From Actinomycetota bacterium (GTDB lineage: Bacteria > Actinomycetota > Geothermincolia > Geothermincolales > RBG-13-55-18), in NCBI GenBank assembly GCA_040757835.1, contig JBFLWJ010000006.1, forward strand, positions 66,512 through 130,511: a stretch of 64,000 nt of DNA, written 5' to 3'. The notes under the pieces were generated by a model. That model made no database searches. It had not been told where the DNA came from and worked only from the letters and a program-made list of their open reading frames with translations. Below are positions 2,500 to 61,702 of the stretch, piece after piece; position 1 is the first letter of the stretch, and every line of letters starts with the position of its first letter. The translations under genes were made by a program, and so were the position numbers.

Positions 2500-2589
2500 G
2501 GGGTCAGCCCGGGATATGGGTGACTGTGGTTGGTGCGCATAGTGACCGCCCAGCGCGATTCTCGAAGTCCCATGTCCGGGGGTGACCCC
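2500..2589. repeat. Variant copy of the ~91-bp inverted-arm dispersed element
   Basis: ggggtcagcccgggatatggg ... cccatgtccgggggtgacccc, 90 bp end to end, same length as the copies at 14037, 43988 and 61612. Confidence 0.65.
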
Positions 2590-2615
2590 GCTTATATGGA
2601 GGTTGTGAGCGAGAG

Positions 2616-4331
2616 ATGGAGCGGGTAGCCCGGCTTTCGAAGAACACCGCGGCCCTGGTGGGCGCGAGGATCGTGACCTCGAGCCTCACCTTCATCCTGG
2701 CCATCATCATCAACCGCAACCTGGGCCCGGAAGCGGCCGGCATCTACACCTACGCCTTCACCCTCTACACCATCTTCCAGGTGATACCGGACTTCGGCCT
2801 CGGTAACATATCCATCCGCGACGTCTCCCAGCAGGTCTCCCGGCTGCGCCGTTACTTCGCGAACATCGTGTCGCTGCGCTTCCTCCTCGGCCTCATCGCC
2901 TTCTCCCTGCTCATGTTGACCAACTTCATCAGCCTGGCCGTGCAGGGGTCGGGGGGGCTGTCCGGGGACAAGTTCTGGGTGGTCTTCACCATCGCCTTCT
3001 GCCTCCTGGTCGAGCAGCCGTTCTCCAACTCCCTGTGCGAGAACTTCATCGCCCTGGAGAGGCTGGGGGTGGTGGCCCTGGTCTACCTGATCATGGGGAT
3101 CATGAAGGTGGCCATGTCCATCTACGTGGTCACCGCCGGCTTCGAAAACGTCCTCGTCTACCTGGTGCTCATCTACATCATCACCATCATCTACTCCATC
3201 TTCCACCTCTACCTGCTCTACCGGCGCGTCCTGCGCCGGACGGAACCTGCCGAGGCGGAGATCAGCGACATGGTGGTGGCCGAGGCGGTCACCCACGGGC
3301 CGGTGCCGTTCGGCGACGCGGCCATGGAGGCGCTGCTCGCGGATTACTCCTATGCCGGGCTGTCCGAGGAGACGGAGAAGGTGGACGCAGGCGCCGGGGA
3401 GGAAACTCAACAACCACCGGTGGCCCCCCCGCCGGAAGAGCCGGCCCTGGTCACCAGGATCGGCCCCTTCACCATGGACGGCAGGTTCTGGCGCTACCTG
3501 CTGGTTAGCGCATGGCCCCTGGCCATCGTCGCCGCGGGCGTGACCATCTACGCCGGCATGGACGTCCCTCTCATCTCCTGGATCAGGGGAGACACCGAGG
3601 TGGGCTTGTACAGCGCCGCCGGCATGTTCGCGAAGGCCCTGGTGTTCTTGACCCTCGCCCTCAACATGGCGGTGCTGCCGGCTGTCTCCAAGGTGGGCGG
3701 CAAGCATCCCGACCGGCTGGGGCAGGTGTGGGAGCGCCTCATCCACTACGCGCTGCTCCTGGTGGTGCCGCTGGTGGTGATCATCCCCGTGCTGGCCCGT
3801 CCCGTCCTGGTGCTGCAGAGATTCCAGTACATCGAGGCCTGGCCCGCCACCTGGCTGACCATGGCCGCCATGACCTTCACCTTCATGACCGCGGTCAGCT
3901 ACCCCTTCTTCATCGTCATCAACAAGCAGAAGACCATCTCCATCGTGGTCCTCTTCGGCCTCCCCCTGAAGGCCGTCCTGGGGATCGTGGCCATCTCCAT
4001 CTGGGGATATATTGGCGCCGCGGCGAGCGTGCTGCTCAGCGAGTGCGTGGTCTTCTGCCTGCTCTACTGGAAGCTGTCACGCGACCTCGAGCACCGTATA
4101 AACTTCCTCCGCTTCGCGGGGGTACCCGCGCTCATGCTGGGAACGCTCTACGGTATCGCCTTCGTCCTAAACAGCGCGCTGGCGGTGGGCAAGGACACCT
4201 TCGCGAGCGCGCTGCAGGCCGCCTTTATCATTGCGGCCGCGCTGACGATTGTTTATATAGTACTGGCCATCGTGACCAAGGCCCTGAGCAGAAAGGGCTT
4301 GCAGGAACTGAACGAGCTGCTTACGGTGTGA
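2616..4331 (+). CDS. Wzx-type flippase (PST/MATE-like polysaccharide exporter)
   Basis: 'RLSKNTAALVGARIV', 'DFGL', 'VGLYSAA' motifs; about 14 hydrophobic segments; acidic internal insertion. Confidence 0.85.
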   Translation: MERVARLSKNTAALVGARIVTSSLTFILAIIINRNLGPEAAGIYTYAFTLYTIFQVIPDFGLGNISIRDVSQQVSRLRRYFANIVSLRFLLGLIAFSLLMLTNFISLAVQGSGGLSGDKFWVVFTIAFCLLVEQPFSNSLCENFIALERLGVVALVYLIMGIMKVAMSIYVVTAGFENVLVYLVLIYIITIIYSIFHLYLLYRRVLRRTEPAEAEISDMVVAEAVTHGPVPFGDAAMEALLADYSYAGLSEETEKVDAGAGEETQQPPVAPPPEEPALVTRIGPFTMDGRFWRYLLVSAWPLAIVAAGVTIYAGMDVPLISWIRGDTEVGLYSAAGMFAKALVFLTLALNMAVLPAVSKVGGKHPDRLGQVWERLIHYALLLVVPLVVIIPVLARPVLVLQRFQYIEAWPATWLTMAAMTFTFMTAVSYPFFIVINKQKTISIVVLFGLPLKAVLGIVAISIWGYIGAAASVLLSECVVFCLLYWKLSRDLEHRINFLRFAGVPALMLGTLYGIAFVLNSALAVGKDTFASALQAAFIIAAALTIVYIVLAIVTKALSRKGLQELNELLTV

Positions 4332-4365
4332 AGGTGACCGGTCCGGTGTTCGGAATGAGAGGCAA

Positions 4366-5421
4366 GTGATGACATTCGGCCGGAGATGCAAGTTGTATCT
4401 GGCGGCGCTGGTGATCCTCGCCGCCGGCCTGCTGTCGAGCGGATGCGGCTGCGTCCTGGGCCAGATCATCGACCAGGCCGGCGTGACCGTGAGGGGACTG
4501 GCCTGCGCCAACGAGATCGCCCAGAAGGCGGGCGAGGGCTACGACGTACGCGAGGCGCGGGCCAAGTGGCTGGAGGCCCTGGACGCCTATAACCAGGGCG
4601 ACTATTCCAGGGCGGACGAGCTAATCGACGCGACCTACGACGCCATGGCCGACATGGAGAAGGTGGCGGAGCGGGTGTACTACCCGAGCTCGGGCGGTCT
4701 GACCGTCTCCGGCCTGCTCTTCCGCCCCGCCGAGGGCAGCGGCCCCTGGCCCACCATCATCGTCAGCCACGCCGGTTTCGGCACCGCCGGAGACTTCAGC
4801 GACGTGGCCCTGATCATACGGGACCAGGGCTACCTGGTCTTCAACCCCGACTTCCGGGGCAGCGGCATGTCAGAGGGCAGCCACGAGGGGGCCAAGGGGG
4901 AGGTGGACGACGTGATCGCGGCCATCGACTACCTGGAATCGGAGGGGCTCATCGCGGACGGGCGCATCGGCCTCTACGGCCAGAGCCACGGCGCCGCGGT
5001 GTCGGTGCTGGCCGCGGAGCGCGACCCGCGCATCAAGGCGGTGGTGGCCGAGGCGGGCTTCTACGACGCCGTTGACCTCTACAACAGCGGCATCAACTCC
5101 CCCGACCCCAACGTCAAGAACGTCCTCAACGAGATGCTGCCAATGGTGGGCGGCACGCCCGAGCAGGTCCCGCAGGAATACGCCGTGCGCTCGGCGCTGA
5201 ACTACGTCGATTCCATGCAGGCCGCGACCCTGCTCATCCACGGCGAAAAGGACCCCCTCTGCCCCGTGGACCAGGCGCGCCGGCTCTACGACGCGCTGCA
5301 AGCGGCCGGCAAGACGGTGGAGATCAAGCTCTACCCCGACGAAGCCCACTGCGTCGTCGATCCCGCGGGCCGGCTGGAGGTGTGGGACCTCATGTTCGCC
5401 TGGTTCGAGGAGTATGTCTAG
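4366..5421 (+). CDS. Exported S9/DAP2-like alpha/beta hydrolase, probable lipoprotein
   Basis: Signal peptide ending LLSSGC; GQSHG nucleophile, HGEKD acid, EAH His; HAG and PDFRG oxyanion region. Confidence 0.8.
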   Translation: MMTFGRRCKLYLAALVILAAGLLSSGCGCVLGQIIDQAGVTVRGLACANEIAQKAGEGYDVREARAKWLEALDAYNQGDYSRADELIDATYDAMADMEKVAERVYYPSSGGLTVSGLLFRPAEGSGPWPTIIVSHAGFGTAGDFSDVALIIRDQGYLVFNPDFRGSGMSEGSHEGAKGEVDDVIAAIDYLESEGLIADGRIGLYGQSHGAAVSVLAAERDPRIKAVVAEAGFYDAVDLYNSGINSPDPNVKNVLNEMLPMVGGTPEQVPQEYAVRSALNYVDSMQAATLLIHGEKDPLCPVDQARRLYDALQAAGKTVEIKLYPDEAHCVVDPAGRLEVWDLMFAWFEEYV

Positions 5422-5468
5422 CGGGCGCGGCGGGGCCGCACCAGCCCGGCCAATGCCCGCGTGGGGTG

Positions 5469-6908
5469 ATGAGTATGCCGAGCGATGAGCGCGACAGGCC
5501 GGCGCCGGTCTCACCGGAGCTGTACACGCGCGAGTACTTCACCACCGACTGCGAGGGGTACGACCTCTTCCTGCAGGGGGCGGAACGGCTCCCCGAGCGC
5601 ATCGAGGTGGCGCTGGACTCCGCGGGAGACCTACGCGGCAGGCGCATCCTGGACATAGGGTGCGGACGCGGCGAACTGGTGTGCGAGGCGGCGCGGCGCG
5701 GGGCGTACGCCGTGGGCATCGACTACGCCCAGGCCGCCATCGAGCTCTCGCGCGAGCGCCTGGCCAAGCTGGACACGGAGCTGCGGGAACGGGTGGAATT
5801 CCTCCTGGCCAACGCCACGGGGCTGGATTTTCCCGACGGCAGCTTCGACGCCGTCTTCCTGGTGGACGTATACGAACACCTCCACCCCCACGAGATAGAG
5901 CATACCCTGGGCGAGGTGAAGCGGGTGCTGCGTCCTGGCGGCCGCCTCGTCGTGCACACCGGGCCCAACACCTGGTTCTACCGCTTCGGGTATCCCTTGG
6001 TGCGCGAGGCGGCGCGCCGCCTGCTGCGCCGTGAGTTCCCGGAGAGCCTGCGCGGGCAGTACGACGACATCATGCACGTGAACGAGCAGGACCCCCTCTC
6101 CCTTTACCGCGGCCTGACCGCGGCGGGATTCAAGGCGGCGGTGAGGCCGCGCAGTTTCCTGGAGGGCATCGACCCTGAGAGCTGGGAGAAGGCGATGATG
6201 GGGGTGCTCTTCGCGCGGCCCCTGGGATACCTCTTCTGCACCAGCCTCATGGCCACCGCCGTCCCCCGCGAAAGCGGCGGCGAGGCGCGCCTGCGCACTG
6301 TCCGCATGCTGCGCATGCTGGACACCGTACAGGGCGACATCCTGCTGGTGGGCGAGGGCGAGGGCATGCTGGCGCGGCGTCTTGCCGGTCGGGACGGCGT
6401 CCGCGTCACCTGGCTGGAGCCGGGGAGCCCCGGGGGGGTGGCGGGTGAGTCACCCCTGGTGGCGGAGGGATACGAACGCCTGGTGGGCGGCCCCGACTCT
6501 CCGCCCTCCGCGCCCGGCGGCTTCGGCGCCGTGGCGGCGCAGTTCACCCTGGACGAGGTGGAGGACCCGGCCGCGGCGCTGCGCGCCTGGCATGGGGCGC
6601 TCAGGGACGGGGGAGCCCTGGTCCTGGCGGCCCGCAACGGCCTCTTCGGGGGCCCCGAGCAGAGGCCCTCTTCCCGGCCCCGCCGCACCTTCACCCCCGC
6701 GGCCCTGTCAGCCCTGGTGGAGGAGGCGGGCTTCGCCGTGGGCGAGGTCTCCACTCTCCTGCCCGACCTCAAGCTGCCGGCGCTCTACCGCGGCGACCTG
6801 GGTTTCGCCCTGCGCCTGGAACGCATACCATATTTTGCCATGAAGGGCAAGCTGCTCTTCCTGCGCGCCGTGAAGGGCCCCGCGCCCGGAAGGGGGAAGG
6901 CGCCGTGA
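5469..6908 (+). CDS. Tandem class I SAM-dependent methyltransferase (two MTase domains)
   Basis: Domain 1 ILDIGCGRG..GID..FPDGSFD..VYEHL; domain 2 ILLVGEGEG (degenerate motif I). Start moved from 5382 to the ATG at 5469 (or 5475) to avoid overlapping the upstream gene. Confidence 0.8.
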   Translation: MSMPSDERDRPAPVSPELYTREYFTTDCEGYDLFLQGAERLPERIEVALDSAGDLRGRRILDIGCGRGELVCEAARRGAYAVGIDYAQAAIELSRERLAKLDTELRERVEFLLANATGLDFPDGSFDAVFLVDVYEHLHPHEIEHTLGEVKRVLRPGGRLVVHTGPNTWFYRFGYPLVREAARRLLRREFPESLRGQYDDIMHVNEQDPLSLYRGLTAAGFKAAVRPRSFLEGIDPESWEKAMMGVLFARPLGYLFCTSLMATAVPRESGGEARLRTVRMLRMLDTVQGDILLVGEGEGMLARRLAGRDGVRVTWLEPGSPGGVAGESPLVAEGYERLVGGPDSPPSAPGGFGAVAAQFTLDEVEDPAAALRAWHGALRDGGALVLAARNGLFGGPEQRPSSRPRRTFTPAALSALVEEAGFAVGEVSTLLPDLKLPALYRGDLGFALRLERIPYFAMKGKLLFLRAVKGPAPGRGKAP

Positions 6909-9677: not shown

Positions 9678-9724
9678 GGTGACCGCCGCCGTCGAAAGAG
9701 CAGCGTCACCATACATAAAACAGT

Positions 9725-9752
9725 TTGCAATTCGAAACCATTCGGTTATAAT
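9725..9752 (+). promoter_or_regulatory. Sigma70-type promoter upstream of the riboswitch/adhesin
   Basis: TTGCAA (9725-30), 16 bp, TATAAT (9747-52) in an AT-rich intergenic stretch. Confidence 0.65.
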
Positions 9753-9781
9753 GTAGTTGCCATAGATAGCGATAGCAGCTC

Positions 9782-9862
9782 ACGATAGGGAAGCGACGAT
9801 CCGTAGCGCGTGACATGGTTACCAGTGCTGCGGGGAGCTAGTGGTGAAACCGGCCCGATCGT
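9782..9862 (+). ncRNA. c-di-GMP-II riboswitch aptamer
   Basis: P1 ACGAU-AGGG/CCC-GAUCGU; GGAAGCGACGAU; 9-bp stem CCGUAGCGC/GUGCUGCGG; loop UUACCA can pair with UGGUGA (pseudoknot); 3' GGAGCUAGUGGUGAAACCG resembles the family consensus GAGUUAGUAGUGCAACCG. Confidence 0.85.
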
Positions 9863-9882
9863 TTTAAGCGGTCGGGTTTTTT
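9854..9882 (+). terminator. Intrinsic terminator, expression platform of the riboswitch
   Basis: CCCGAUCG-7 nt loop-CGGUCGGG followed by U6; 5' arm overlaps the P1 3' strand. Confidence 0.8.
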
Positions 9883-10136
9883 CATACAAGTATAGGCAGA
9901 CAAGTAAGACGGGCAGACAAAAGGAGGACGCAAGAAGGGGTAGAAGGGCAGGGAAAAGGGAAAGCTTTCCGGTCGTGGCCAGAACTCACTCGGCGTAGAT
10001 ATCTGGAACAGACCCCGGAAGGAACCTCCCGAAACCACCCACTGGCACTCTTCGGATGTTGCGCTCGCGAAACCGGACGTTAAAGCGAGCGCCGCGTCCC
10101 GATCTTGGGAAAGGCACTATTGCGGAGGTGACGTCA

Positions 10137-13100
10137 ATGAGCAAGTCGACCAGGTGGTTGGCACTCGTCTCCATCACGGCACTGGTACTAATGTCGCTTC
10201 TGGGCGGGATCGTCTCCGCCCTGGCCGGAAACGGCGCTGCGTCAAAGGCAGGTGCCGGAAGCGTGATGGCGGAGGGTGCGGCAGTCATCACACCGGAGCA
10301 GAACCCGCCCCCGGACGGGGGGGAGACCACTGAAAAGGCGGTCCTCGAGGAGACGCAGAGCGGGATCTTGTGCGAAAAGGGCAAGATCATCGTCATCAAG
10401 TTCCTCGACGCCAACGAGAACAAGGTGATGGACAAGGGCGAGACGGGCATGGCCGGCGTGACCGTCACCATCAATGGTGGAAACCCCAAGGTGACCGGGA
10501 GCGACGGCAAGGTCGTTTTCGACGGGCTCCTGCCCGGCACATATATTGTGGCCGAGGTTGTCCCCGCAGGTTACCACCCCACCGACAAGGCCTCCTACAC
10601 TATCGATATATGCTGGGATCAGTGCAAGACCGTCTATATCGGCAACGCCCCCGACGAGGAGCTCAAGGGCTCCATATCCGGCCACAAGTACAACGACGTG
10701 GACGCGAGCGGCGGCTACAGCGCGGGCGACCTCCCCCTGGCCGGAGTGACCATCAACCTGCTCAAGGACGGGCAGGTCATCGACTCCACCACCACGGCCG
10801 CGGACGGGAGCTACTCCTTCAGCGATCTGGCGCCCGGCAACTACGAGGTAGAGGAGGTCCTCCCCGCGGGGACCGAGGCCACCTCGCCCACCAAGCTGGC
10901 GGCGCCGGTGACGGAGAACTGCCTGGACGTCACGGGCAAGGACTTCTTCAATAAGGTCATCGAAATAGAGCTGAAGGGCTCCATCTCCGGCCATAAGTAC
11001 AACGACGTGGACGCAAGCGGCGGCTACAGCGCGGGCGACCTCCCCATGGCGGGAGTGGTGATCGAGCTGTGGAAGGACGGCGCCAAGGTAGCCCAGACGA
11101 CCACGGCAGCGGACGGGAGCTATTCCTTCACGGACCTAGCCCCCGGCGATTACACGGTAAAGGAGGTCCTGCCCCTGGGGACCGAGGCTACCTCCCCCAC
11201 CAGCGTTGACGTCACGGTGTCTGAGGAAGACCTGGACATCACCTGCGTCGACTTCTTCAACAAGGAAGTCCCGCCCGAGTGCGACGACGGCATCATCGAG
11301 GGCGTGGTCAGGGTGGACGAGGACTGCGACGGCGAGTTCACCTGGGACGACCCGCTCCTCGACGGCGTCATCTTCAGGCTCTACCATATCGAGGACGGGG
11401 GCGGCCTCACGCCGGTCGTGCCACCGTCCCAGATAAGTGGACCGGGTTGGGGATACAACGTCTTCCTCCCCCTGGTCATACCGGTCTATTATCCCGGCGG
11501 GCACGTCATCTGGGAAGGCCTGCCGCGCGCATACGGCGGCAGCACGACCTCTGCCCGTTACCGGCTGGTCATGGAGGTGCCGGAGGGGTACACGCCCATC
11601 GGGCCGGTCAGCTACGACCTCGAGCTCCACAACTGCCCGTGGCCCTGTTTCTGGTTCAGCAAGAACTTCCTGCTCTCCAGGAACTCGCACCTGCGCGGGC
11701 ACAAGTACGAGGACGTGAACTGCAACGGCGTATACGACGCCGCGATGGATAAGCCGCTCGAGGGCTGGACCATCGAGCTCTACAAGGACGGTTCGCTCAT
11801 CGCCACCACCACGACCAACGCCGCGGGCGAGTACAGCTTCGAGGACCTCCCCGAGGGCGTGTACACGGTCAAGGAGGTGCTGCAGGACGGCTGGATGTAC
11901 AGCTATCCCGCGGACGGTACCTTCGTGGACGTGCCGGTTGGATGCGGGGACGTCGACGGCAAGGACTTCCTCAACAAGCGCTACCTCGGCATCAGCGGGC
12001 ACAAGTTCCAGGACGCGAACTACGACGGCGTCATCGACGCCGGGGACCCCGGCGTGCCGGGCGTGGAGGTGCAGCTGTTCAAGTGGGACGAGGGCAGCGG
12101 CGAATACGAGTACCTGGCTTCGACGGTGACCGGGGCCGGCGGTTACTACGAGTTCACGGACCTGGTGCCCGGTGACTACAAGGTGCAGGAGGTGCTCACG
12201 CCGGAGCTCCTTGAGGACTGGTACATCGTCAGCCCCGAGGGCGGCGTGTTCGTCCCCGTGGAACTGGAGTGCGAGAGCGTCGAGGACCTGGACTTCCTCA
12301 ACGCGCTATACCTCGGCATCAGTGGGCATAAGTACGAGGACGCCGACGGCGACGCCGAGATCGGCGGGGAAGACCCGGGGGTGCCGGGAGTCGAGATCCA
12401 GCTGTTCATCTGGAACGAGAACAGCGGCGAGTTCGATCTCCTGGCTTCGACAGTGACCGGAGCCGGCGGTTACTACGAGTTCACGGGGCTCAAGCCCGGT
12501 ACCTACAAGGTACAGGAGATACTCACACCAGCGCTGCTGGAGGACTGGTACATCATCAGCCCCGAGGGCGGCGTGTTCGTCCCGGTGGAGCTGACGAGCG
12601 GGGACGTCGAGGACAAGGACTTCCTCAACGCCCGCTACGGCGCCATCGAGGGATGGAAGTACTGGGACAAGGACGAGAACGGCATAATGGACGGTGATGA
12701 CGAGGGGCTGGCCGGCGTGGCCATCATCCTCGATCCTCCCCCGGACCTGGGCGCGCCCCGCGTGGCCATCACCGACGCAGAAGGACATTTCTTCTTCGGC
12801 GGCCTCAAGCCGGGCACCTACACGGTGAGCGTGGACGAGTCCACGGTGCCCGACTACTATCCCATCAGCCCGGTCACCGTCGAGGTGGACGTGGTCAACG
12901 CCGTGACGGTGCAGGTCTATTTCTCCGAGGCGCCCTACGGTTCCATCTCCGGCAAGAAGTGGCTGGACGCCAACGCGGACGGGATATGGGGCGAGGACGA
13001 GACGGTGGTCATCGCGGGCATCACCATCAACCTCTACGAGGGCAACCCGCCCGGAGAGCTCATCGCCTCCACTGTTACCGGTGAGGACGGCTACTACGAG

Positions 13101-13976
13101 TTCACCAAGCTCAAGCCCGGAATCTACACGGTGGTAGAGGAGGGCAAGGAGGGTTACTTCGCCTGCACTCCCATCGAGGTGGAAGTGGTCCTCTCGGCCG
13201 GAGAGGGAGCCGTGGTGGACTTCGGCAACTGCCCCTACGGGCGCATCGAGGGGTTGAAATACCTCGATGAAGACGGTGACGGTGCCCAGGATGCCACCGA
13301 GAGCGGTCTCGAGGGAGTGGAGATCACCCTGGTCGGGCTGGACGTCGATGTCATCGCCATCACCACCACCGGTGAAGACGGCAGCTTCGTCTTCAACGAC
13401 CTGATCCCGGGAAGGTATGTGGTCTCGGAGACCGTTCCTTCCGGTTATTACTTCACCCGTCCCATAAGGGTCGAGGTGGTCGTGGGCGCGGGAGAGAGCA
13501 TATCGGTCATCTTCGCCAACGCGCTCTACGGCAGGATCGTCGTGAACAAGTGGCTGGACGACGGAGACCAGCTGCTCGACCCGGAGAAGGACACGCCCAA
13601 GGCGGGCATGCCCATCAAGCTCACCGGCAAGACCGTCAGGGGCGAACTGGTGAGCATTGAGACGGTGACGGACGAGGACGGTAGTTATACCTTCCTCCTG
13701 CTGGAGGCTGGAGACTATACCGTGACCGAGACCTACGACCCGGAGAAGATGATGGCCATCACGCCGGACAGCGTGGATGTGGCGCTGCCCCCGGGCGGAG
13801 AGGAAGTAGTGGACTTCCTCAACGCCGAGGTCGAGGTGTCCCCCGAAGTCATCGAGGCGGATACACTGCCGCAGACCGGCATCAACCAGCTACCGCTGCT
13901 GTTCGCCGCGGGGACGCTGGTGCTCGCGGGCCTGGTCTTCCTGGCCCTGGGTCTGCGCAGGCGCTTCCAGGAATAA
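10137..13976 (+). CDS. Sortase-anchored surface adhesin with 11 SdrD-B/CnaB-like domains
   Basis: Signal peptide; repeats G-x-I-x-G-x-K-Y-x-D-x-D-x-D-G...Y-x-V-x-E...F-x-N; C-terminal LPQTG + hydrophobic helix + RRR. RBS GGAGGT favours the ATG at 10137 over 10056. Confidence 0.9.
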   Translation: MSKSTRWLALVSITALVLMSLLGGIVSALAGNGAASKAGAGSVMAEGAAVITPEQNPPPDGGETTEKAVLEETQSGILCEKGKIIVIKFLDANENKVMDKGETGMAGVTVTINGGNPKVTGSDGKVVFDGLLPGTYIVAEVVPAGYHPTDKASYTIDICWDQCKTVYIGNAPDEELKGSISGHKYNDVDASGGYSAGDLPLAGVTINLLKDGQVIDSTTTAADGSYSFSDLAPGNYEVEEVLPAGTEATSPTKLAAPVTENCLDVTGKDFFNKVIEIELKGSISGHKYNDVDASGGYSAGDLPMAGVVIELWKDGAKVAQTTTAADGSYSFTDLAPGDYTVKEVLPLGTEATSPTSVDVTVSEEDLDITCVDFFNKEVPPECDDGIIEGVVRVDEDCDGEFTWDDPLLDGVIFRLYHIEDGGGLTPVVPPSQISGPGWGYNVFLPLVIPVYYPGGHVIWEGLPRAYGGSTTSARYRLVMEVPEGYTPIGPVSYDLELHNCPWPCFWFSKNFLLSRNSHLRGHKYEDVNCNGVYDAAMDKPLEGWTIELYKDGSLIATTTTNAAGEYSFEDLPEGVYTVKEVLQDGWMYSYPADGTFVDVPVGCGDVDGKDFLNKRYLGISGHKFQDANYDGVIDAGDPGVPGVEVQLFKWDEGSGEYEYLASTVTGAGGYYEFTDLVPGDYKVQEVLTPELLEDWYIVSPEGGVFVPVELECESVEDLDFLNALYLGISGHKYEDADGDAEIGGEDPGVPGVEIQLFIWNENSGEFDLLASTVTGAGGYYEFTGLKPGTYKVQEILTPALLEDWYIISPEGGVFVPVELTSGDVEDKDFLNARYGAIEGWKYWDKDENGIMDGDDEGLAGVAIILDPPPDLGAPRVAITDAEGHFFFGGLKPGTYTVSVDESTVPDYYPISPVTVEVDVVNAVTVQVYFSEAPYGSISGKKWLDANADGIWGEDETVVIAGITINLYEGNPPGELIASTVTGEDGYYEFTKLKPGIYTVVEEGKEGYFACTPIEVEVVLSAGEGAVVDFGNCPYGRIEGLKYLDEDGDGAQDATESGLEGVEITLVGLDVDVIAITTTGEDGSFVFNDLIPGRYVVSETVPSGYYFTRPIRVEVVVGAGESISVIFANALYGRIVVNKWLDDGDQLLDPEKDTPKAGMPIKLTGKTVRGELVSIETVTDEDGSYTFLLLEAGDYTVTETYDPEKMMAITPDSVDVALPPGGEEVVDFLNAEVEVSPEVIEADTLPQTGINQLPLLFAAGTLVLAGLVFLALGLRRRFQE

Positions 13977-14005
13977 TACACGATCCGACAACGTCACACC
14001 GCTTA

Positions 14006-14033
14006 GGAAAGGGCCCCCACCGGGGCCCTTTCC
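14006..14033. terminator. Likely bidirectional terminator hairpin
   Basis: GGAAAGGGCCCC-cacc-GGGGCCCTTTCC perfect 12-bp stem between convergent genes. Confidence 0.75.
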
Positions 14034-14036
14034 GAT

Positions 14037-14128
14037 GGGGTCAGCCCCTGACATGTGACATTTACTCGATTCAGAAAGATCGAAGAAGATACCTCAAATG
14101 AAAATGACACATGTCAGGGGCTGACCCC
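14037..14128. repeat. ~91-bp REP/REPIN-like element (25-bp inverted arms, 42-bp spacer)
   Basis: ggggtcagcccctgacatgtgacat ... atgacacatgtcaggggctgacccc. Confidence 0.9.
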
Positions 14129-14136
14129 ATCGGCTA

Positions 14137-14610
14137 CTACCACTCGAACCCTATGCCCGGGTCGTCGTAGGGGATGCGCTCCTCATCGGGGGCGGAGGGG
14201 TCGTAACTCTCGGTGGTATGGTAGAAGAGGCCGGCCGGCCGGTCTCCCAGCACCTGGTAGCCGTGGGCCACGCCGGGGGGGATGACCACCAGCAGGGGCT
14301 TGTGCTCGCCCGCGTAGATGACCTGGGTCTGCCGGTAGGTGGGCGAGCCCTCCCGGAGGTCGTGGAGCACCACCCGCGCCTCGCCCATGGCCATGAACCA
14401 CAGGTCGTACTGCCTGCGGTGCCAGTGGAAGGCCTTGATGACGCCGGGGTAGGTGACGGTGAAGGTGGTCTGCCCGAAGCGCTCCAGGAGGCCGTCGTCG
14501 TCGCGCAGCACTTCCAGCAGGTATCCCCTCTCGTCGCAGAAACGCATGAGGGGCTTGACGCGCACACCTTCTATGTTGCCTGCGGGCATTCCGTCCATGT
14601 TCATCACCAT
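14137..14610 (-). CDS. rfbC: dTDP-4-dehydrorhamnose 3,5-epimerase family cupin
   Basis: 'DERGYLLE', 'GVIKAFHWH', 'IPPGVAHGY', 'YDPSAPDEERIPYDDP'. Confidence 0.85.
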   Translation of the reverse strand: MVMNMDGMPAGNIEGVRVKPLMRFCDERGYLLEVLRDDDGLLERFGQTTFTVTYPGVIKAFHWHRRQYDLWFMAMGEARVVLHDLREGSPTYRQTQVIYAGEHKPLLVVIPPGVAHGYQVLGDRPAGLFYHTTESYDPSAPDEERIPYDDPGIGFEW

Positions 14611-14688
14611 AGCTAAGGTTAGCGGAGCGGACCCCCCAAGGCAACCCGGGGCCAGTCCCTCCGCTATGGCGAAGGCCGAATAGAAAAA

Positions 14689-14713
14689 ATGTCACATGTC
14701 AGGGGCCGACCCC
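14689..14713. repeat. Solo arm of the same dispersed element
   Basis: atgtcacatgtcaggggccgacccc, one mismatch to consensus; no partner arm ~90 bp away. Confidence 0.8.
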
Positions 14714-14791
14714 CTCCGTTAGACCCCGTACGTTATTCGTGCTAAGTTTCTACTGTGGGTGCTCCGACAGTTCGCAAGGAGGAGGACGGGG

Positions 14792-17303: not shown

Positions 17304-17316
17304 TGGGGCGGGCTTT

Positions 17317-18954: not shown

Positions 18955-19038
18955 TGCACATCACCGCGCGCCGAACAGCCGACAGAGTTTGCTTATCTCG
19001 GGTTATCGACCGGAAGCGTACGGAAATTGAGATAAGGT

Positions 19039-43280: not shown

Positions 43281-43356
43281 TGGTCCCCCGGGCGGGATTT
43301 GAGCCCGCGACCTGCCCTTTGTGAGGGAGCTGCTCTGTCCGCTGAGCTACCGAGGG
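43281..43356 (-). tRNA. tRNA-Val(CAC), atypical
   Basis: 76-nt cloverleaf with encoded CCA; anticodon loop CU-CAC-AA; C54 in the T-loop, C31:A39 mismatch, C1:G72. Confidence 0.75.
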
Positions 43357-43634: not shown

Positions 43635-44009
43635 ATGCCGTTCAAGGATTTCAACGACAAGCACAGGGAGGTGCTGGACAGCATGCTCCTGGACATCCCG
43701 GGGGTGAAGGCAGGGAAGATGTTCGGCCTGCCCGGGTACTACGCGGACGGCAAGCTCTTCGCCTGCGTCTGGGAGGACGGCGTATCCATCAAACTGCCGG
43801 AAGATTTGCGCACAAAGATGCTGAAGCGCAAGGGAGTGGAGCCCTTCGTGCCCATGGAGGGGCGCCCCATGAAGGAGTGGGTGCTCATCAACCGCGAGAA
43901 CTCCCGGGACTACCTCAAGCTCGAGGACGTCTTCGTCTCGTCGGTGGAATACGTCCTCTCCCTGCCGAAGAAGAGCCCGCGCAAGAGGGGGTCAGCCCCT
44001 GACATATGA
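43635..44009 (+). CDS. TfoX/Sxy N-terminal-like small protein
   Basis: 'KMFGLPGYYADGKLFAC', 'GRPMKEWV'; stop codon lies inside the repeat arm. Confidence 0.75.
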   Translation: MPFKDFNDKHREVLDSMLLDIPGVKAGKMFGLPGYYADGKLFACVWEDGVSIKLPEDLRTKMLKRKGVEPFVPMEGRPMKEWVLINRENSRDYLKLEDVFVSSVEYVLSLPKKSPRKRGSAPDI

Positions 44010-44077
44010 CATTATTAATAGAGACCTTTATCTGGACCTGCGAGATCAAGAAATGTCATATGTCAGGGGCTGACCCC
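43988..44077. repeat. ~91-bp REP/REPIN-like element (40-bp spacer)
   Basis: ggggtcagcccctgacatatgacat ... atgtcatatgtcaggggctgacccc. Confidence 0.9.
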
Positions 44078-44078: not shown

Positions 44079-44480
44079 TCACTTTACGTTGTAGATGTAG
44101 AAGGTGCCGAGGGCCTTGGCCACCATTTCACTCCCGTTCACGACCTCCGATTCCAGGATGGCGATGCGCGATCGCCTCTCCAGTACCTTCGTATCGCATA
44201 CGAGGTTTCCGCTCTTGACCGCCGACATGTACGCTATCTTGATCTCTACGGTGGTGCACAGCTCGTTTTCCTCGAGGACCGAATAGAGCGCCCCACCCAT
44301 GCCCGTGTCCGCCATGGCATAGACGGCGCCGCCGTGCAGGACGCCGTGCGGGTTGAGCAGCTCGTCCTTGACCTGCAGCTCGCAACGGCTCTTGCCTTCG
44401 CCGAAAGCCGTGAACTCCAGGCCGATGAGTTCGCCAAAGGGATTGAACCCCTTGGATGCGGTCGGGAACTCCTTTGGCAT
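44079..44480 (-). CDS. PaaI family hotdog thioesterase
   Basis: 'LNPHGVLHGGAVYAMADTG', 'TVEIKIAY'; start at the ATG at 44480. Confidence 0.9.
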   Translation of the reverse strand: MPKEFPTASKGFNPFGELIGLEFTAFGEGKSRCELQVKDELLNPHGVLHGGAVYAMADTGMGGALYSVLEENELCTTVEIKIAYMSAVKSGNLVCDTKVLERRSRIAILESEVVNGSEMVAKALGTFYIYNVK

Positions 44481-44668
44481 CTCAACCCTTTCCCGCGATG
44501 AGCTGCTACGAAACCGTCGTACCACGAGGAGCACCGACGTGGCAGGCCGCCGCCGTGCCCGACACCACCATGATAGCACCGGGGCGGTCAGTGTAAAGGA
44601 AGCCTGTCCGGGACGCATGGGGTATACTTCTTAAAGTCCTCTCGCGGAACGGGAAAGGAGTGGGTCTT

Positions 44669-46742: not shown

Positions 46743-46844
46743 GCTTTCAGCTCACGCCGCGGGTGGACCCCCGGGCATCTTGTGCATGCAAGTTAATGGC
46801 GCGGCCTGCCGAGAATAACATGTAGTTATGGTTTCATCTCCAGG

Positions 46845-51320: not shown

Positions 51321-51391
51321 GCGGTCAAGGCATGCATCGGGGAATTCCTATAGAATATACTGCGTTGCGCAACAACGTCAGGGAGGTGAAT

Positions 51392-52483: not shown

Positions 52484-52644
52484 GATTTCATGTCCTTAGC
52501 CGCTGGGTCCAGACGCGCTATCGCTTTTTCCGAGGGATACCGGCCAGTCTGAAACGTGGGGGCGCAATTGACGCGTCGAGGCCCACGATCCCGGGGTGAA
52601 GCGGCGCCTTGAACACCCGGTGGCGGAAGAGCGCGGCAGGCCCG

Positions 52645-53724: not shown

Positions 53725-53906
53725 TAGCGATCTCCAGATAGTCGTTATTATCCCAATTCTAGGTATTTACTAGCGAAGAGGTCTAGAGACCTGCCTCGAA
53801 GGGAGCGCCACGAGAGAACCTTTCGAGCATACTGCTCCCAGCTGAATTGCGGCATCCATATAAGGTTTACCGGACCCTTATCGCTAAATCCGGCCTGATG
53901 GCAGGT

Positions 53907-56903: not shown

Positions 56904-56949
56904 GACCTACCTCCAGGAAAGAGAAATCCAGTAATCCATGGAGGGATGA

Positions 56950-56967
56950 TATACCCTTGGGGGTATA
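56950..56967. promoter_or_regulatory. CsoR/CstR-type operator
   Basis: TATACCC-TTGG-GGGTATA, a C/G-tract palindrome upstream of the oxidoreductase. Confidence 0.65.
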
Positions 56968-57034
56968 GGCGATACGATCTAGATCATACGGCTCAGACCG
57001 CCGGGAACGGGCCGGGAGATCGCCGGATACCGCC

Positions 57035-57328
57035 CTATTCGGGGGTTACCGGGCCTATGCGAGAGCTGAAACGCAGGAAGGTGTCGATGGCCTCGGCGAT
57101 GGCTTCGTCGGGCGACAGCTCGCGGTTCTCCTGCAGGCATTCCCTCATGCGGTGGGTGATGATGTGGATGCCGATGCGGTCCATGGCCGAGCGCGCCGCG
57201 GCCACCTGGGTAAGCACTTCCTCGCAGTCCTTCTCCTCCTCCACCATGCGGATGATGCCGCGCACCTGGCCCTCGACTCGCCTCAGCCTGCGCAGAACGG
57301 CTTCTCTCTCGTCGCTGTTTCCGGCCAT
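57035..57328 (-). CDS. CsoR/RcnR/CstR family repressor
   Basis: 'RLRRVEGQVRGI..MVEEEKDCEEVLTQVAAARSA', 'HRMREC'. Confidence 0.9.
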   Translation of the reverse strand: MAGNSDEREAVLRRLRRVEGQVRGIIRMVEEEKDCEEVLTQVAAARSAMDRIGIHIITHRMRECLQENRELSPDEAIAEAIDTFLRFSSRIGPVTPE

Positions 57329-57634
57329 AATACCTCCTCGTCTCGGACCATTGCCATTATATATCCGCCATGCGGGCACCACCATCAGCTGCGTCATGTC
57401 TCCGCGCGTTACGGAGGCCGGACGAGGACCCCATGTACCGCGCAGGATTCGAAGGCCGCTTCCCCGAAAAAAGGCTTAGGGTGAGCCGCAGGCTGCGGGT
57501 GCATATGGGCCCGCGAACCTGGTCCCCGCGTGCGGGAACCGGTGCGCGACGCGGGGGCTCGAATAAGGTTGATGGCTTGAACGTCCCCGTCCAGCGAGGG
57601 TCATTCAGGACTCAACCCGGGAAGGAGGTGCAAG

Positions 57635-57889
57635 ATGGAGAAGCAGGTGGGACGGATCACTCATTACTTCGCCAAGATCGGCGTAGCGGCCATCGAGCTC
57701 GAGGACGAGCTGCGGGTGGGAGACACCATCCACATCAAAGGCCACACCTCGGATTGGACCCAGGGGATCACCTCCATGCAGATCGAACACGACCAGGTGG
57801 AGAAGGCGGGACCGGGGGACGTCATCGGCATCAAGGTGGAAGGCCATGCCCGGGAACACGACATCGTGTACAAGGTCACCGGCGACTGA
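57635..57889 (+). CDS. Small beta-barrel protein (EF-Tu domain II / U32 peptidase C-terminal-like)
   Basis: 'VGRITHYFAKIGVAAI', 'VGDTIHIKG', 'SMQIEH', 'HDIVYKV'. Confidence 0.8.
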   Translation: MEKQVGRITHYFAKIGVAAIELEDELRVGDTIHIKGHTSDWTQGITSMQIEHDQVEKAGPGDVIGIKVEGHAREHDIVYKVTGD

Positions 57890-57988
57890 CCACCACACGC
57901 GGGGCCATATGTCCGTGAAGGCCTCCTCCCATGGGTTATAATGGCTGCGAAAGGACCTTTGGGTACGAAACCTCGATCGGGAGGAAGG

Positions 57989-58561
57989 ATGGCGGAGGCG
58001 GCCGTAAGCGGCTCCGAGCGCTTTGAGTTCGAGATAAGAGGGGGGTTGTGGGAGAGCGTCCACGTGGTGGTCTTCTACGCGTCGGTGGTCTCGGCGGTGC
58101 TGGCCACCGCCGGCGTGCTGCGCCTGGAGTTGGGGATCAGCTGCATCGTCATCCTCTTCTACAGCATGTTCACCATCTTCTCCTCGCCCACCTATGCGAT
58201 CTGTGACGCCGGGACGCGCCAGCTCATCCTGGAGCGATACCATTACTTCATACCCAGCCGCAAGGCCATGGAGCGCGAGGAGCTGGAGGGCCTGGAGGTC
58301 GTCGAATCCCAGCGCGTCCCCGACGAGGGCGGGGAGCGTGCCACCAGGCATGACCTGGCGTATTTCGTCCGTGTATACCTGTTGCGCAAGGGCGGCCGCA
58401 GGCTGAAGCTGTACGGTTCCGGCATGACCGGCGCCCCCGCCGACAACCGCGCCAAGGCCTTCCTCATCGCGCAGCACCTGGCCGGCGAACTGGATATCCC
58501 CGTCAAGTACGCGCGGCGCGGCCGCGGTGAAGACCACGCCGCGGGGCGACCTGGAGAATGA
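57989..58561 (+). CDS. Uncharacterised two-TM membrane protein
   Basis: RBS GGAGGAAGG; two hydrophobic helices followed by a soluble domain. Confidence 0.6.
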   Translation: MAEAAVSGSERFEFEIRGGLWESVHVVVFYASVVSAVLATAGVLRLELGISCIVILFYSMFTIFSSPTYAICDAGTRQLILERYHYFIPSRKAMEREELEGLEVVESQRVPDEGGERATRHDLAYFVRVYLLRKGGRRLKLYGSGMTGAPADNRAKAFLIAQHLAGELDIPVKYARRGRGEDHAAGRPGE

Positions 58562-58567
58562 TCGAAG

Positions 58568-59665
58568 GTGAAGGAGAACCGCCCCAAGACGGCAGTTTCC
58601 ATCGCGCTCTGCGCGGCGCTGTTGCTGACCGCCGCGGTCGTCTCCTCTTGTGGCGGCGAAGAGGCCGTGCGGGGTTGGGACAGCGACCCCATCGTGCCGG
58701 GATATTCCATGGCGGAGGTGTCCATCGGCGATCCCTTCTCGGCGGTGCAGGAGGTCCACGGCGACCCCGCCGAGAAGCTGAAGGACGGCGGCTACCTCTA
58801 TGCCTACTACGAGAGGACCAGGGAGGACGGCAAGATCGACGACCCCGCCTCGTGGCGCCTGGTGGTCACCCTTTACGACAACGGCAACGGCTACCTCGAC
58901 GGCGCGGACGAGGTGGGTTCCATCGAGGTCTCGGCGCCCTACTCCGGGCTCACCTCGGGGGGGGTCGGCATCGGGAGTTCCCCGGGGGACATCGAGAGGG
59001 AGTTCGGTCCTTGTGAGAACATAAGCGAGATACAGCGACCCGACGGCAACAGGATGAAGCTCTATTCCTACGTGGAGAGGGGAGTCGATTTCCTGGTGCT
59101 GCCGCCGCAGGGAGCCATCACCGTGGTGGTCTACGCTTACGGCGGACTACGCCCCGTAGAGGAAGAAGGCGACGACGATGACGCCCAGGGGGGACTCTTC
59201 GGCATTTACGGCAATGCCCCCATAGTCGCCGGCCAGACGGCGGCGGGGATCATCATGGGGGATGAGTTCCGGGCGGTGAAAGAGAAATACGGTGCTCCGG
59301 ATAGCACGGGTTTTACCACCGAGGGACTGGTCTACGCCACCTATACCGGGGGTTACGGCCCATGGAAACTCAACTTGTATCTTGAGGACACGGACGGCAA
59401 CAATACACTTGGGGACTTCGACGTCGTGGTGTCCATAAGCGTTCGCTACCCGTATATGGGCCTGACGCCCAAGGGCGTGGGCATATCCTCGTCGACGGCC
59501 GGGGCCGTCGCCGAATTCGGCCCGCCGGAAAAGCAGAGCGAAGTGGAGCAACAGGGCGAAAGACTGACTATCCTGGAATATAATTCCAAAGGTATCGTCT
59601 TTGCCGCCAGGGCCGGCACGGGCGAGATCGTGGAGATAGATGTCAACCGCCCTCTCGCCCCGTGA
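58568..59665 (+). CDS. Lipoprotein with an internally duplicated domain
   Basis: Lipobox VSSC; paired motifs 'IGDPFSAVQEVHGDP'/'MGDEFRAVKEKYGAP' and 'GVGIGSS'/'GVGISSS'. Confidence 0.72.
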   Translation: MKENRPKTAVSIALCAALLLTAAVVSSCGGEEAVRGWDSDPIVPGYSMAEVSIGDPFSAVQEVHGDPAEKLKDGGYLYAYYERTREDGKIDDPASWRLVVTLYDNGNGYLDGADEVGSIEVSAPYSGLTSGGVGIGSSPGDIEREFGPCENISEIQRPDGNRMKLYSYVERGVDFLVLPPQGAITVVVYAYGGLRPVEEEGDDDDAQGGLFGIYGNAPIVAGQTAAGIIMGDEFRAVKEKYGAPDSTGFTTEGLVYATYTGGYGPWKLNLYLEDTDGNNTLGDFDVVVSISVRYPYMGLTPKGVGISSSTAGAVAEFGPPEKQSEVEQQGERLTILEYNSKGIVFAARAGTGEIVEIDVNRPLAP

Positions 59666-59723
59666 CAAGGGGCAGGGGAGGCTGATATAAAACGTCCCGG
59701 GAGGGGGCCGTAAGAGAAAGCGG

Positions 59724-60485
59724 GTGAGCGTTATGTTGAAAAGAGTCAAGCGTCTGGCCCTGCTCTCGGCCGTTGGGTACGGCCTGGCGGTGAAGTCACT
59801 CAACCCCAGCCTGCGCGACCTGACCGATCCCGCGTGGCACCTCGAAGTCCCAATGCGCGTGACCATGCGCGGCCTTACCAGGTTGCTGCCGGCCCTCTAC
59901 GACCGCTTCGGGGAGAAAGGGGTGCGGGCGCTGCAGTACGTCTTCTACCGCATCGGGGAGGACCGCGCGCCCATCCTCCGCGAATACCTGCAGATCGACC
60001 CCTATGACGCGCGCAGCCTGGGCCGCGTCCTCGACTACGAGGACGGGCTGGCGGGGGTACGCGGCACCTGGACGGAAGAGACCAAGGGCAGGGCGGTGAA
60101 GGAGGAGCGGTACTGCCCGGCGGCACGGGATCTGGAATGCTGCCCCGAGGTATGCACCAAGCTGATGATGGCCCTGGAGGCGGGGACCTTCTCGGTGCTC
60201 AACCCCGACCTCATGGTCCCGGAGCTCTCCAAGCTGCTCTCCACCGGAGACGACTGCTGCCTCGCCACCATCGAGCTCCCCCTTGCGAAGAAGGAGGCCG
60301 GCAAGGATTCGCCCCAGGCGACACCGGGCGCCTTCCCCCCCGTGCTCAAGGTGCCAGGCCTCGAGGCCAAACTGGCGTCGCAGGGGATCAAGAGCGTCCT
60401 GGCCGCGCTCTGGACCATCCTAACCAAGGGGCCCGAGCAGCCCATGCACTGGTACGAACATATCCGTTACGGCCCCGGGGCGTGA
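59724..60485 (+). CDS. ATC-hydrolase/V4R-like domain protein
   Basis: 'ERYCP', 'EVC', 'KLLSTGDDCC' pattern typical of this fold. Confidence 0.55.
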   Translation: MSVMLKRVKRLALLSAVGYGLAVKSLNPSLRDLTDPAWHLEVPMRVTMRGLTRLLPALYDRFGEKGVRALQYVFYRIGEDRAPILREYLQIDPYDARSLGRVLDYEDGLAGVRGTWTEETKGRAVKEERYCPAARDLECCPEVCTKLMMALEAGTFSVLNPDLMVPELSKLLSTGDDCCLATIELPLAKKEAGKDSPQATPGAFPPVLKVPGLEAKLASQGIKSVLAALWTILTKGPEQPMHWYEHIRYGPGA

Positions 60486-60488
60486 TAG

Positions 60489-61595
60489 TTGTACTACGAC
60501 GTCCTGGTGGTGGGAGCTGGTCCCGGCGGCTGTATGGCGGCACGTTCCCTCGCGAGTTCCGGGTTCAAGGTCGGTCTGATCGAAAAAGAGAAGTTGCCGC
60601 GGGACAAGCCCTGCGGGGGCTTCATACCCCCGGGGGCGGCGAAGCTGCTGGAGGAGGCTTTCGGGGCCTTGCCCCCGGACGTCATGGATGTGCAACCGAC
60701 GGTCCGCGGCGCCCGCCTCCTCTGCGAGGGCGGGGGCTCCTACGCGCTGCCCTATCCCGCGCCCGGCCTTTCCGTGATGCGCTCCCGCCTCGACGCCCAT
60801 ATGGCCGCGCGATGCGGCGCGCAGGTCATGGACGGATGCGAGCTGGTCGACTTCGACCTGGAGCGTTTCCACGTAACGGCGAGCATCTCCTGCGGCGAGC
60901 GGGAAGAGGTGGTGGAGGCGACCTACCTGGTGGCAGCTGACGGGGCGGACTCCATGGTCCTGCGCCGGCTTCGGCCGGAGTTCCACCGCCTCTACGCCGC
61001 GCCCCGCCTGGAGAGGGCCATGCTGGTCATGGGCGAGGGCTCCATGGACTGGGACCCGGAATGGATGGGTCTCGCCCTCCTGCGCAACGGTATAGGCATC
61101 GACCGCTTCTTCGCCAAAGGCGGCCTCATCGGGATGGCGGTCAACCTGGGCACCGACCGCGGCTGGCGCGAGGAGCTGGACGCCCTCACCTCCGTATTGA
61201 GGCAGAGGGCGGGGCTGCAGCTGCAGGGAGAGCCCATGCGCCGCATCTCCGCCTCCAACCGCATGGCGGCGGGTGGCCATTACAGCCTGGGGGCGGGCTG
61301 CGCCCTGCTGGTGGGCGAAGCGGCGGGGCTCCTCGACCCCTGGGGTTTCGGGATCGGGCTGGCGCTGGAGAGCGGGCAAGTGGCCGCGGAGTCCATCGCC
61401 GAGAGCGCCGGGGAGAGGATCACGCCGCATATCCGTTATCGCTACCGTATGCAGGAGATAGTTGAGCGCGAGCAGAGGCAGCGGCGGCATCTCGACGCCG
61501 GCGTGGGTGAGCTGGATACCTCTTCCCTGGCCTCGGACCGCGGCCGTGCCGCACGCGGCGACCGGCGCGCCCTGCGCCGCCGCTTCTCCAAGTAA
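60489..61595 (+). CDS. Geranylgeranyl-reductase-like FAD oxidoreductase
   Basis: 'DVLVVGAGPGG', 'RDKPCGG', 'VAADGADS', 'VGEAAG..DP..GFGI'. Confidence 0.85.
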   Translation: MYYDVLVVGAGPGGCMAARSLASSGFKVGLIEKEKLPRDKPCGGFIPPGAAKLLEEAFGALPPDVMDVQPTVRGARLLCEGGGSYALPYPAPGLSVMRSRLDAHMAARCGAQVMDGCELVDFDLERFHVTASISCGEREEVVEATYLVAADGADSMVLRRLRPEFHRLYAAPRLERAMLVMGEGSMDWDPEWMGLALLRNGIGIDRFFAKGGLIGMAVNLGTDRGWREELDALTSVLRQRAGLQLQGEPMRRISASNRMAAGGHYSLGAGCALLVGEAAGLLDPWGFGIGLALESGQVAAESIAESAGERITPHIRYRYRMQEIVEREQRQRRHLDAGVGELDTSSLASDRGRAARGDRRALRRRFSK

Positions 61596-61611
61596 CGGGG
61601 TCAGCCCGGAG

Positions 61612-61702
61612 GGGGTCAGCCCCTGACATGTGACATCGTGCTGCGCAACGGCAACCAGGGCTTCGGGTGTGCCCGGCATGTCACATGTCAGGGGGTGACC
61701 CC
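61612..61702. repeat. ~91-bp REP/REPIN-like element (41-bp spacer), preceded by a partial arm at 61597-61610
   Basis: ggggtcagcccctgacatgtgacat ... atgtcacatgtcagggggtgacccc. Confidence 0.9.

Follow-up and report, generated by a model that had tools for sequence, protein, structure and literature searches.

Short inverted-arm repeats in a genome of the Actinomycetota are very probably REPIN-like dimers of a TIRtron end-repeat

A 64,000-nt stretch of a genome of the Actinomycetota (GenBank assembly GCA_040757835.1, contig JBFLWJ010000006.1), referred to here as the window, contains several copies of a dispersed element in which two inverted 25-nt arms enclose a spacer of about 40 nt. The results of the current study indicate that these elements are very probably REPIN-like head-to-head dimers of the end-repeat of a TIRtron, i.e. 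of a RAYT-like Y1/HUH transposase gene lying between long terminal inverted repeats (TIRs). In relatives, arms of this type bracket Y1 genes, the arm tails change with the enzyme clades, and the arm encodes the C-terminus of the enzyme. Moreover, whole units have multiplied in this lineage, arms at shared sites are kept while the loops decay, and the elements lie at gene 3' ends. That the transposase, termed TIRYT, mobilises its TIR here is suggested indirectly, by the co-variation of tails and clades and by the lineage-specific amplification. This reading would settle the nature of a conspicuous repeat of about 100 arms that fills many gene-end gaps, as a selfish or domesticated transposase-end repeat which shows no sign of acquiring DNA. 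It would also extend the little-studied TIRtron/TIRYT class to the Actinomycetota, that is, a known kind to a new lineage.

The window corresponds to C6:66512-130511 of a 3.44-Mb, 63% GC assembly of 35 contigs (genome label G000). With up to three mismatches allowed, seven occurrences of the arm, GGGGTCAGCCCCTGACAT(G/A)TGACAT, were counted in the window, whereas shuffled sequences predicted none, and the repetition noted in a preliminary description of the window was thus reproduced. At up to four mismatches, the whole genome held 107 arms in 51 clusters, 42 of which were simple +/- pairs, while the remainder were solos and +--, ++- and ++-- clusters. The spacing of the arms was clearly non-random, with 39 of the 42 pairs measuring 90–93 bp. 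Every arm carried the head GGGGTCAG and none a GTAG tag, in agreement with the earlier remark that the arm is not a REP (repetitive extragenic palindrome) of the GTAG type. The inverted symmetry mostly reached past the 25-nt arm, with AT(C) outside and TTTC/GAAA inside, and inverted runs of at least 5 nt were found in the outward AT(C) flanks of 21% of pairs, compared with 0.9% in the null. Truncated copies of the head lay just outside 15 of the 84 element ends, compared with six in the control orientation. Direct target duplications of 3 nt or more, which had not been seen in the window either, were absent from all 42 pairs.

Among the species representatives scanned, the exact arm was found only in G000 and in G001, an uncultured Actinomycetota metagenome-assembled genome of the same genus, indicating a patchy spread. 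Inverted GGGGTCAG...CTGACCCC pairs of 76–106 bp were present in 30 of 41 genomes from across the class (at most one hit with a reversed-pattern control), and genes matching PF01797 (Y1_Tnp) were present in 32 of the 41 relatives. At most of the 25 PF01797 loci examined, the gene was bracketed by inverted GGGGTCAG arms. Each Y1 paralogue or enzyme clade had its own arm tail, the head GGGGTCAG being invariant. A clade of 327–343 aa (G008, G013 and four metagenomic homologues) was flanked by GGGGTCAGCCCCGGACATGGGACAT, which is the nearest variant of the window arm and differs from it by two bases. The window's arm family is designated fam1, and the fam1-type enzyme is the cognate of the window's arm variant. 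A second clade, of 277–297 aa, was flanked by elements of fam2, the second G000 family (about 125 bp, arm GGGGTCAGGTCTTGGATTTTGGATACC). The resemblance to REPINs mobilised by HUH/RAYT enzymes, proposed from the window alone, is therefore borne out by the relatives; an arm-flanked, RAYT-like gene of the sort that the preliminary description recommended looking for was found in them, but not in G000.

The enzymes of the relatives scored above the Pfam cut-off for Y1_Tnp. Against the NCBIfam model REP_Tyr_transpos (NF047646, cut-off 80 bits), the fam2-type enzyme scored 81.9 bits and the fam1-type enzyme 53.6 bits. Residues H60 and H62 (HUH) and Y118 were invariant in 23 aligned enzymes. A weak DnaA_C-like helix-turn-helix (HTH) was detected at the C-terminus, and many homologues have a precomputed Pfam hit to this domain. 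Searches of solved structures, made with a single enzyme sequence and with a profile, returned nothing at E <= 0.01.

All six fam1-type genes encode a protein with the C-terminus (L/M)SHVRG, and their right arm supplies the last six codons together with the stop (ATG TCC CAT GTC CGG GGC TGA, followed by CCCC). The corresponding sequence of the window arm, ATG TCA CAT GTC AGG GGC TGA, encodes the identical peptide, both differences being synonymous. Both also hit the matching base of two tandem hexamers, changing GGACAT-G-GGACAT (the G..G arm) to TGACAT-G-TGACAT (the T..T arm). Because several other arm types likewise repeat a hexamer at a 7-nt period after the head, we infer that the arms may consist of an invariant head and a specificity module. 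The cognate enzyme/arm pairs, the natural two-base specificity variant and the C-terminus-encoding arm offer handles for a first TIRYT biochemistry.

A TIRtron consists of a gene, present as a single copy, for the RAYT-like Y1 (HUH) tyrosine transposase TIRYT, and of the long inverted repeats on either side of it, which start with GGGGWSAS. In the proposed mechanism, the dimer would be its non-autonomous, REPIN-like form, made up of two 25-nt arms and a passenger loop. The enzyme would bind the arm pair as a folded or duplex structure. Catalysis would depend on the invariant head, and sequence-specific binding on the tandem hexamers (TGACAT x2), with the DnaA_C-like HTH tail as the possible binding part of the enzyme. 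After nicking at or next to the head, the enzyme would copy the hairpin unit to new sites via single-stranded DNA, as has been proposed for REP/REPIN-RAYT systems.

A different origin had been raised in the preliminary description, namely a system that captures or exchanges foreign DNA pieces of about 41 nt between fixed inverted arms. The spacers had been taken as unrelated to one another, two being AT-rich and one GC-rich. These compositions were correct (GC 0.33, 0.38 and 0.73), and the few copies in the window are indeed mutually unrelated, but when the 42 spacers of the genome were clustered, with either orientation allowed, 32 fell into three homologous classes and ten were singletons. 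Class A (n = 14) is GC-rich and includes the window element at 61612, class B has ten members, and class C (n = 8) includes the element at 14037; the element at 43988 is among the singletons. Within a class, spacer identity was 0.72–0.79 and arm identity 0.95–0.98, while between classes spacer identity was at the shuffled level (about 0.53). The window copies look unrelated simply because the window samples one member each of several classes. When 25 genomes were compared, the cores of the class A and class C spacers were found in G000 only, and not in G001. Arms and spacer were therefore copied as one unit in the G000 lineage after its split from this sister species.

The comparison of orthologous loci, also suggested earlier, was made with G001. 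At four junctions the two genomes shared a family; at one of these, the full element of G001 corresponds to a solo arm in G000. At the three junctions that could be measured, the arms were 21/21 to 24/25 identical, except for one arm with a 5-nt deletion, and the spacers were 0.55–0.60 identical, compared with shuffled nulls of 0.46–0.55; at one junction the spacers differed in length (33 vs 42 nt). At about five further junctions the boundary was shared but the GGGGTCAG family was another one, and about five more had none. Among eight congeners, most carried a different element with a GGGGTCAG-type head at the junction between a terminator and rfbC, several of these at the same left boundary, and G008 had none. 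Because arms at shared sites are near-identical while the spacers are close to the shuffled level, the arms are evidently constrained and the loops free, with families turning over at preferred gene-end slots.

Capture or exchange is very improbable in the light of these results, although several observations are of the kind it would predict. The length of the elements is narrow despite mutually unrelated spacer classes and ten singletons among 42 spacers, and the sites shared with G001 combine the same arms with unrelated spacers, in one case of unequal length. In G033, which belongs to the same class of bacteria, a sister family has loops at shuffled-null identity, yet 26 of its 30 copies measure 76–77 bp. 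On the other hand, the spacers are copied together with the arms, classes A and C being private amplifications of G000, and the idea of a foreign source did not hold, since no spacer matched phage or plasmid collections, or the G000 genome outside other elements. No gene for an adaptation-type or linked acquisition enzyme, as expected of a CRISPR-like array or of another one that captures spacers, was found. The decay of spacers at shared sites, where identity is at or just above the shuffled level, fits an unconstrained loop and is consistent with neutral drift, the flanking genes being about 80% identical. Nor is the length fixed: it is narrow within a genome, but varies between lineages, with modes of 88 bp in G001 and 91–92 bp in G000, and a range of 54–116 bp for elements around fam1-type genes. 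An origin of the loop from local DNA was likewise not supported, as at the sole G033 junction that is element-free in the congener G036 the loop was absent too (n = 1). It was also observed that in the 76–77 bp family of G033 the outer flanks, gcgcaacatc before GGGG and gatgttgcgc after CCCC, are part of the repeat; they can pair with an inner TGTTGC, and in the resulting hairpin GGGGTCAG would come to lie in the loop.

RAYT-like genes with long TIRs that are not GTAG REPs were described as TIRtrons, and their enzyme as TIRYT, by Di Nocera, De Gregorio and Rocco (2013, BMC Genomics 14:522; PMC3733652). According to these authors, some TIRs share GGGGWSAS, TIRs sometimes overlap the gene 3' end, and the families, which are only moderately abundant, comprise TIR copies scattered singly, as dimers or in clusters; deletion of REPtrons was also noted. 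The present system resembles TIRtrons in that the relatives have a RAYT-like Y1/HUH gene between long inverted GGGGWSAS repeats, a motif which GGGGTCAG fits, as well as in the overlap with the gene 3' end, the dispersal as singles, dimers and clusters, and the occurrence of several enzyme/TIR pairs per genome. It differs in that one family reaches 107 arms in 3.4 Mb, almost all in fixed-length dimers, and in that the arm tail is a tandem hexamer of which both copies changed in parallel (GGACAT x2 to TGACAT x2). Furthermore, the flanked gene is found in the relatives and not in G000, where it seems to have been lost. Neither PMC3733652 nor the survey of RAYTs by Bertels et al. (2017, PMC5581495) mentions Actinobacteria.

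In the latter survey, only RAYT Groups 2 and 3 were clearly linked to REPs. With REPIN-RAYT systems (Bertels and Rainey 2011, PMC3116915; PMC5581495) the elements share the organisation of two inverted repeats and a spacer forming a long hairpin, arms that are better kept than the spacer, an extragenic location biased to gene 3' ends, and a cognate Y1 gene that is single-copy, placed between its own repeats and syntenic across genera. Unlike REPINs, they have no GTAG tetranucleotide, and in most families of this kind the arm itself is not a small REP palindrome. The enzymes are also about twice as long (277–343 aa) and carry the DnaA_C-like HTH tail.

The elements could alternatively be classical miniature inverted-repeat transposable elements (MITEs), i.e. 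internal-deletion derivatives of a DDE insertion sequence (IS) with 25-bp TIRs that move by cut-and-paste. Bacterial MITEs originate from DDE insertion sequences, and direct target duplications are formed when they insert. Like MITEs, the elements are short, non-coding, TIR-bounded, of fixed size and multi-copy, often beside genes, and a 92-bp element (C3:311478) lies exactly where relatives have arm, gene and arm, as a deletion derivative would. Nevertheless, this origin is hardly credible here, as neither a DDE parent nor, in any of the 42 pairs, a direct duplication of at least 3 nt was found. The assembled G000 contigs contain no multi-copy transposase, and an IS110-family element present at contig ends targets the arms and is not flanked by them. 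The gene that arms bracket in the relatives encodes a Y1/HUH enzyme, is single-copy per arm type and is syntenic across genera; it is not a DDE IS. The MITEs used for this comparison were Correia/NEMIS, RUP and Nezha, which are named in the background of PMC3733652.

A reading as Tn3-type ends was also considered and rejected, since neither a 5-bp direct duplication nor a Tn3-like transposase was found. It had been considered for inverted repeats starting with GGGGTC, which we take to resemble the ends of Tn3.

For the REPIN-like interpretation, the state of the system in G000 is of particular relevance. The fam1-type locus of G008 has the gene order HK-RR-TIRYT-GT4-NAD synthase-UDPG dehydrogenase, which it has in common with two JGI contigs. 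It corresponds to a contiguous stretch of C3 in G000, in which the gap between GT4 and RR holds only the 92-bp element (C3:311478-311569). The locus of G013 corresponds to the next gap in G000 (C3:313876-314485), which holds an 83-bp element and a Rieske-type open reading frame (ORF). The fam2-type locus is syntenic in four genomes from three genera, and in G000 it is found at the starts of contigs C19 and C30 as a single fam2 element, split by the IS110-family element. Both traceable ancestral TIRtron loci have thus been reduced to one short element each, and the enzyme genes seem to have been lost from this genome. For these reasons, the roughly 100 arms are probably recently orphaned copies. 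Alternatively, the enzyme gene may lie in an unassembled piece; a Y1 gene ending in ...ATGTCACATGTCAGGGGCTGA inside a T..T arm, if present, would mean that the system is alive.

Candidates for a mobilising enzyme in G000 itself were tried and discarded. Between the element at 14037 and the solo arm at 14689, the ORF shows the sequence hallmarks of an rfbC gene, and the ORF after it resembles rfbD (both judged by eye). Among other genes bracketed by elements, those on C28 are thiolase- and acyl-CoA-synthetase-like, and those at C3:303-318 kb are ordinary-looking (by eye). No RAYT, integrase or Cas-like gene was linked to the elements, and no transposase was among the multi-copy genes of the assembled contigs.

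Several points weigh against the elements being dimers of a TIRtron end-repeat. G000 has no PF01797 match, and tblastn of 25 enzyme ORFs of relatives against it gave no match to the Y1 domain, the sole match being to an N-terminal extension, not of Y1 type, in one ORF. The searches brought up no enzyme with the exact T..T arm on its flanks; a protein search yielded only homologues flanked by the G..G arm, and a protein-based scan of metagenomes for an enzyme with the T..T arm gave one distant match. The narrow length range, the inverted instead of direct flanks and the truncated head copies are left unexplained by the model. Neither a clean empty site nor an insertion polymorphism was seen among the congeners, which are only about 75–88% identical in the flanking genes and have other families, or unalignable sequence, at the junctions. 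In addition, the arms are kept at orthologous sites even in a decayed copy, a sign of selection acting on the locus in addition to recent copying. Finally, PMC3733652 reports no assay of a TIRYT or a TIR, and proposes tests of binding, cutting and mobilisation as future work.

These observations can be joined in a more far-reaching proposal, for which the odds are rather low, that in uncultured Actinomycetota the GGGGTCAG-headed TIR/TIRYT represents a Y1 system that is class-wide and distinct in its mechanism. Its recognition would be modular: catalysis would take place at the head, and the HTH tail would read tandem hexamers particular to each clade. A new specificity would come about when both hexamers change in parallel, limited by the C-terminal codons of the enzyme within the arm. 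Once the gene is lost, selection would maintain the arms as gene-end hairpins and donors of stop codons, and they would also be landing pads for the IS110-family element. The combination of narrow length and randomised loops, strongest in G033, would reflect either a spacing need of an enzyme dimer or a renewal of arms without renewal of loops.

The position of the elements relative to genes was assessed with a crude, GC3-based ORF calling. Among 37 classifiable copies in G000, 18 lay between convergent genes, 18 between tandem genes and one between divergent genes, and 36 followed at least one gene. About 11 neighbouring ORFs ended within an arm, the T..T arm supplying TGA in two frames, and about ten more stopped 1 nt from an element, a point of relevance for annotation as the repeats supply the stop codons of many neighbouring genes. 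A secondary role for the host, as gene-end hairpins, is plausible. It is possible, although doubtful, that such a role is now the main one, i.e. that the elements, whatever their origin, are immobile and host-selected as bidirectional terminators, stabilisers of mRNA 3' ends or stop-codon donors. The gene-end position and the stop codons would be expected in this case, as would the very stable hairpins, the lack of a remaining transposase gene in G000, and the preservation of arms (but not of spacers) at sites shared with G001, even in a degenerate copy. However, terminators require complementary arms, not one fixed 25-nt sequence in about 100 arms, and the stem is followed by AT(C) and not by a run of T. 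Moreover, classes A and C expanded recently in G000 alone, and because congeners have unrelated families or nothing at the same junctions, no single element seems to be indispensable. As a secondary role, the gene-end hairpin is compatible with the dimers being derived from a TIRtron.

Of the four copies listed for the window in the preliminary description, three are intact pairs, of 92, 90 and 91 bp, and the fourth is degenerate and belongs to a sister variant. All three intact elements form strong DNA hairpins (dG -32 to -37 kcal/mol, z -8 to -11), and all three lie between convergent ORFs, as had been described. The 92-bp element (14037-14128) has arms at 14037-14061 and 14104-14128, with one mismatch, and a 42-nt class C spacer of 33% GC; its hairpin has a dG of -35.5 and a z of -11.1. 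It is flanked by a conserved terminator-like hairpin (~14007-14030) and by the stop of rfbC at 14137. The 90-bp element (43988-44077) has perfect arms of the ATATGACAT variant, a 40-nt singleton spacer of 38% GC and a hairpin z of -9.8. It occupies the entire gap between two convergent ORFs: the ORF at 43635-44009 terminates 22 nt into its left arm, and the stop of the minus-strand ORF at 44079-44618 lies 1 nt from its right arm. The 91-bp element (61612-61702) has a G8C change in the right arm, a 41-nt class A spacer of 73% GC and a hairpin z of -7.9, and its right arm contains the stop codon of the minus-strand ORF at 61688-62743. At the corresponding junction, no such element was present in G001, G002, G003 or G007.

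The solo arm and the partial arm mentioned earlier are both present. The former, GGGGTCGGCCCCTGACATGTGACAT (14689-14713, minus strand), lies in the intergenic region of the divergent gene pair rfbC/rfbD. It is the remnant of a full element, as the orthologous position in G001 is occupied by a complete 87-bp element of this family. The latter is a truncated 15-nt head, GGGGTCAGCCCGGAG (61597-61611, plus strand), directly outside the element at 61612-61702 and in the same orientation. The decayed 90-bp copy at 2500-2589 has the arms GGGGTCAGCCCGGGATATGGG... and GGGGTCACCCCCGGACATGGGAC..., of which only the right one passes, at four mismatches, and it belongs to the GGGGTCAGCCCCGGACATGGGACAT type. 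Both of its arms are identical to those of the G001 ortholog (21/21 and 21/21), with a spacer identity of 0.60 compared with a shuffled null of 0.55.

No Rfam 15 family matched the elements at its gathering score, the sole matches in the window being elsewhere. These were a c-di-GMP-II riboswitch (RF01786, 61.3 bits; 9780-9864, plus strand) upstream of a 1306-aa ORF (10056-13976), and a tRNA gene (RF00005, 53.5 bits; 43284-43356, minus strand) about 630 bp upstream of the element at 43988. The GC-rich terminator-like hairpin at 14007-14030, aaagggcccccaccggggcccttt, follows the same 1306-aa ORF and is kept in six congeners, where it forms the left boundary at which each bears its own GGGGTCAG-type element.

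The ancestral TIRYT site is surrounded by six fam1 elements within 10 kb (C3:306669-316025), which occupy nearly every gene gap. Two element-flanked genes in this region, at 306837-307940 and the GT4 gene at 310339-311499, have no counterpart in the orthologous G001 region, and their absence suggests that the elements may mediate loss or gain of the genes between them. Elsewhere on this contig (C3:45334-45444), a 43-bp unit (12 nt of spacer, the arm and a 6-nt flank) forms three tandem copies at one element end, and the corresponding G001 site has its own tandem duplication, which involves another family.

The fam2 arm can be written as GGGGTCAGGTCTTG(G/T)(A/T)TTTTGGATACC. About 30 copies were found in G000, of 123–127 or 106–107 bp and with diverged interiors, for example at C11:37475-39279 and C28:12687-14189, both outside the window. 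Whole fam2 elements flank the TIRYT clade of 277–297 aa in G001, G004 and G006. The multi-copy IS110-family element (DEDD_Tnp_IS110 and Transposase_20; N-terminus MSRVYIGID) is found at no fewer than 14 contig ends of G000, including C6:137014-137130 (outside the window), C9:3-119, C30:1-116 and C19:1-130, and a full copy is at L091:1003-2058. Wherever the left junction is visible, it is inserted at CAAGACCTG^ACCCC, within the head of the fam2 arm, and in G002 the element is found at GGGTTG^ACCCC. It therefore seems that the IS110-family element targets the TIR head and may account for many assembly breaks, with which the repeats, and this element landing in their heads, coincide.

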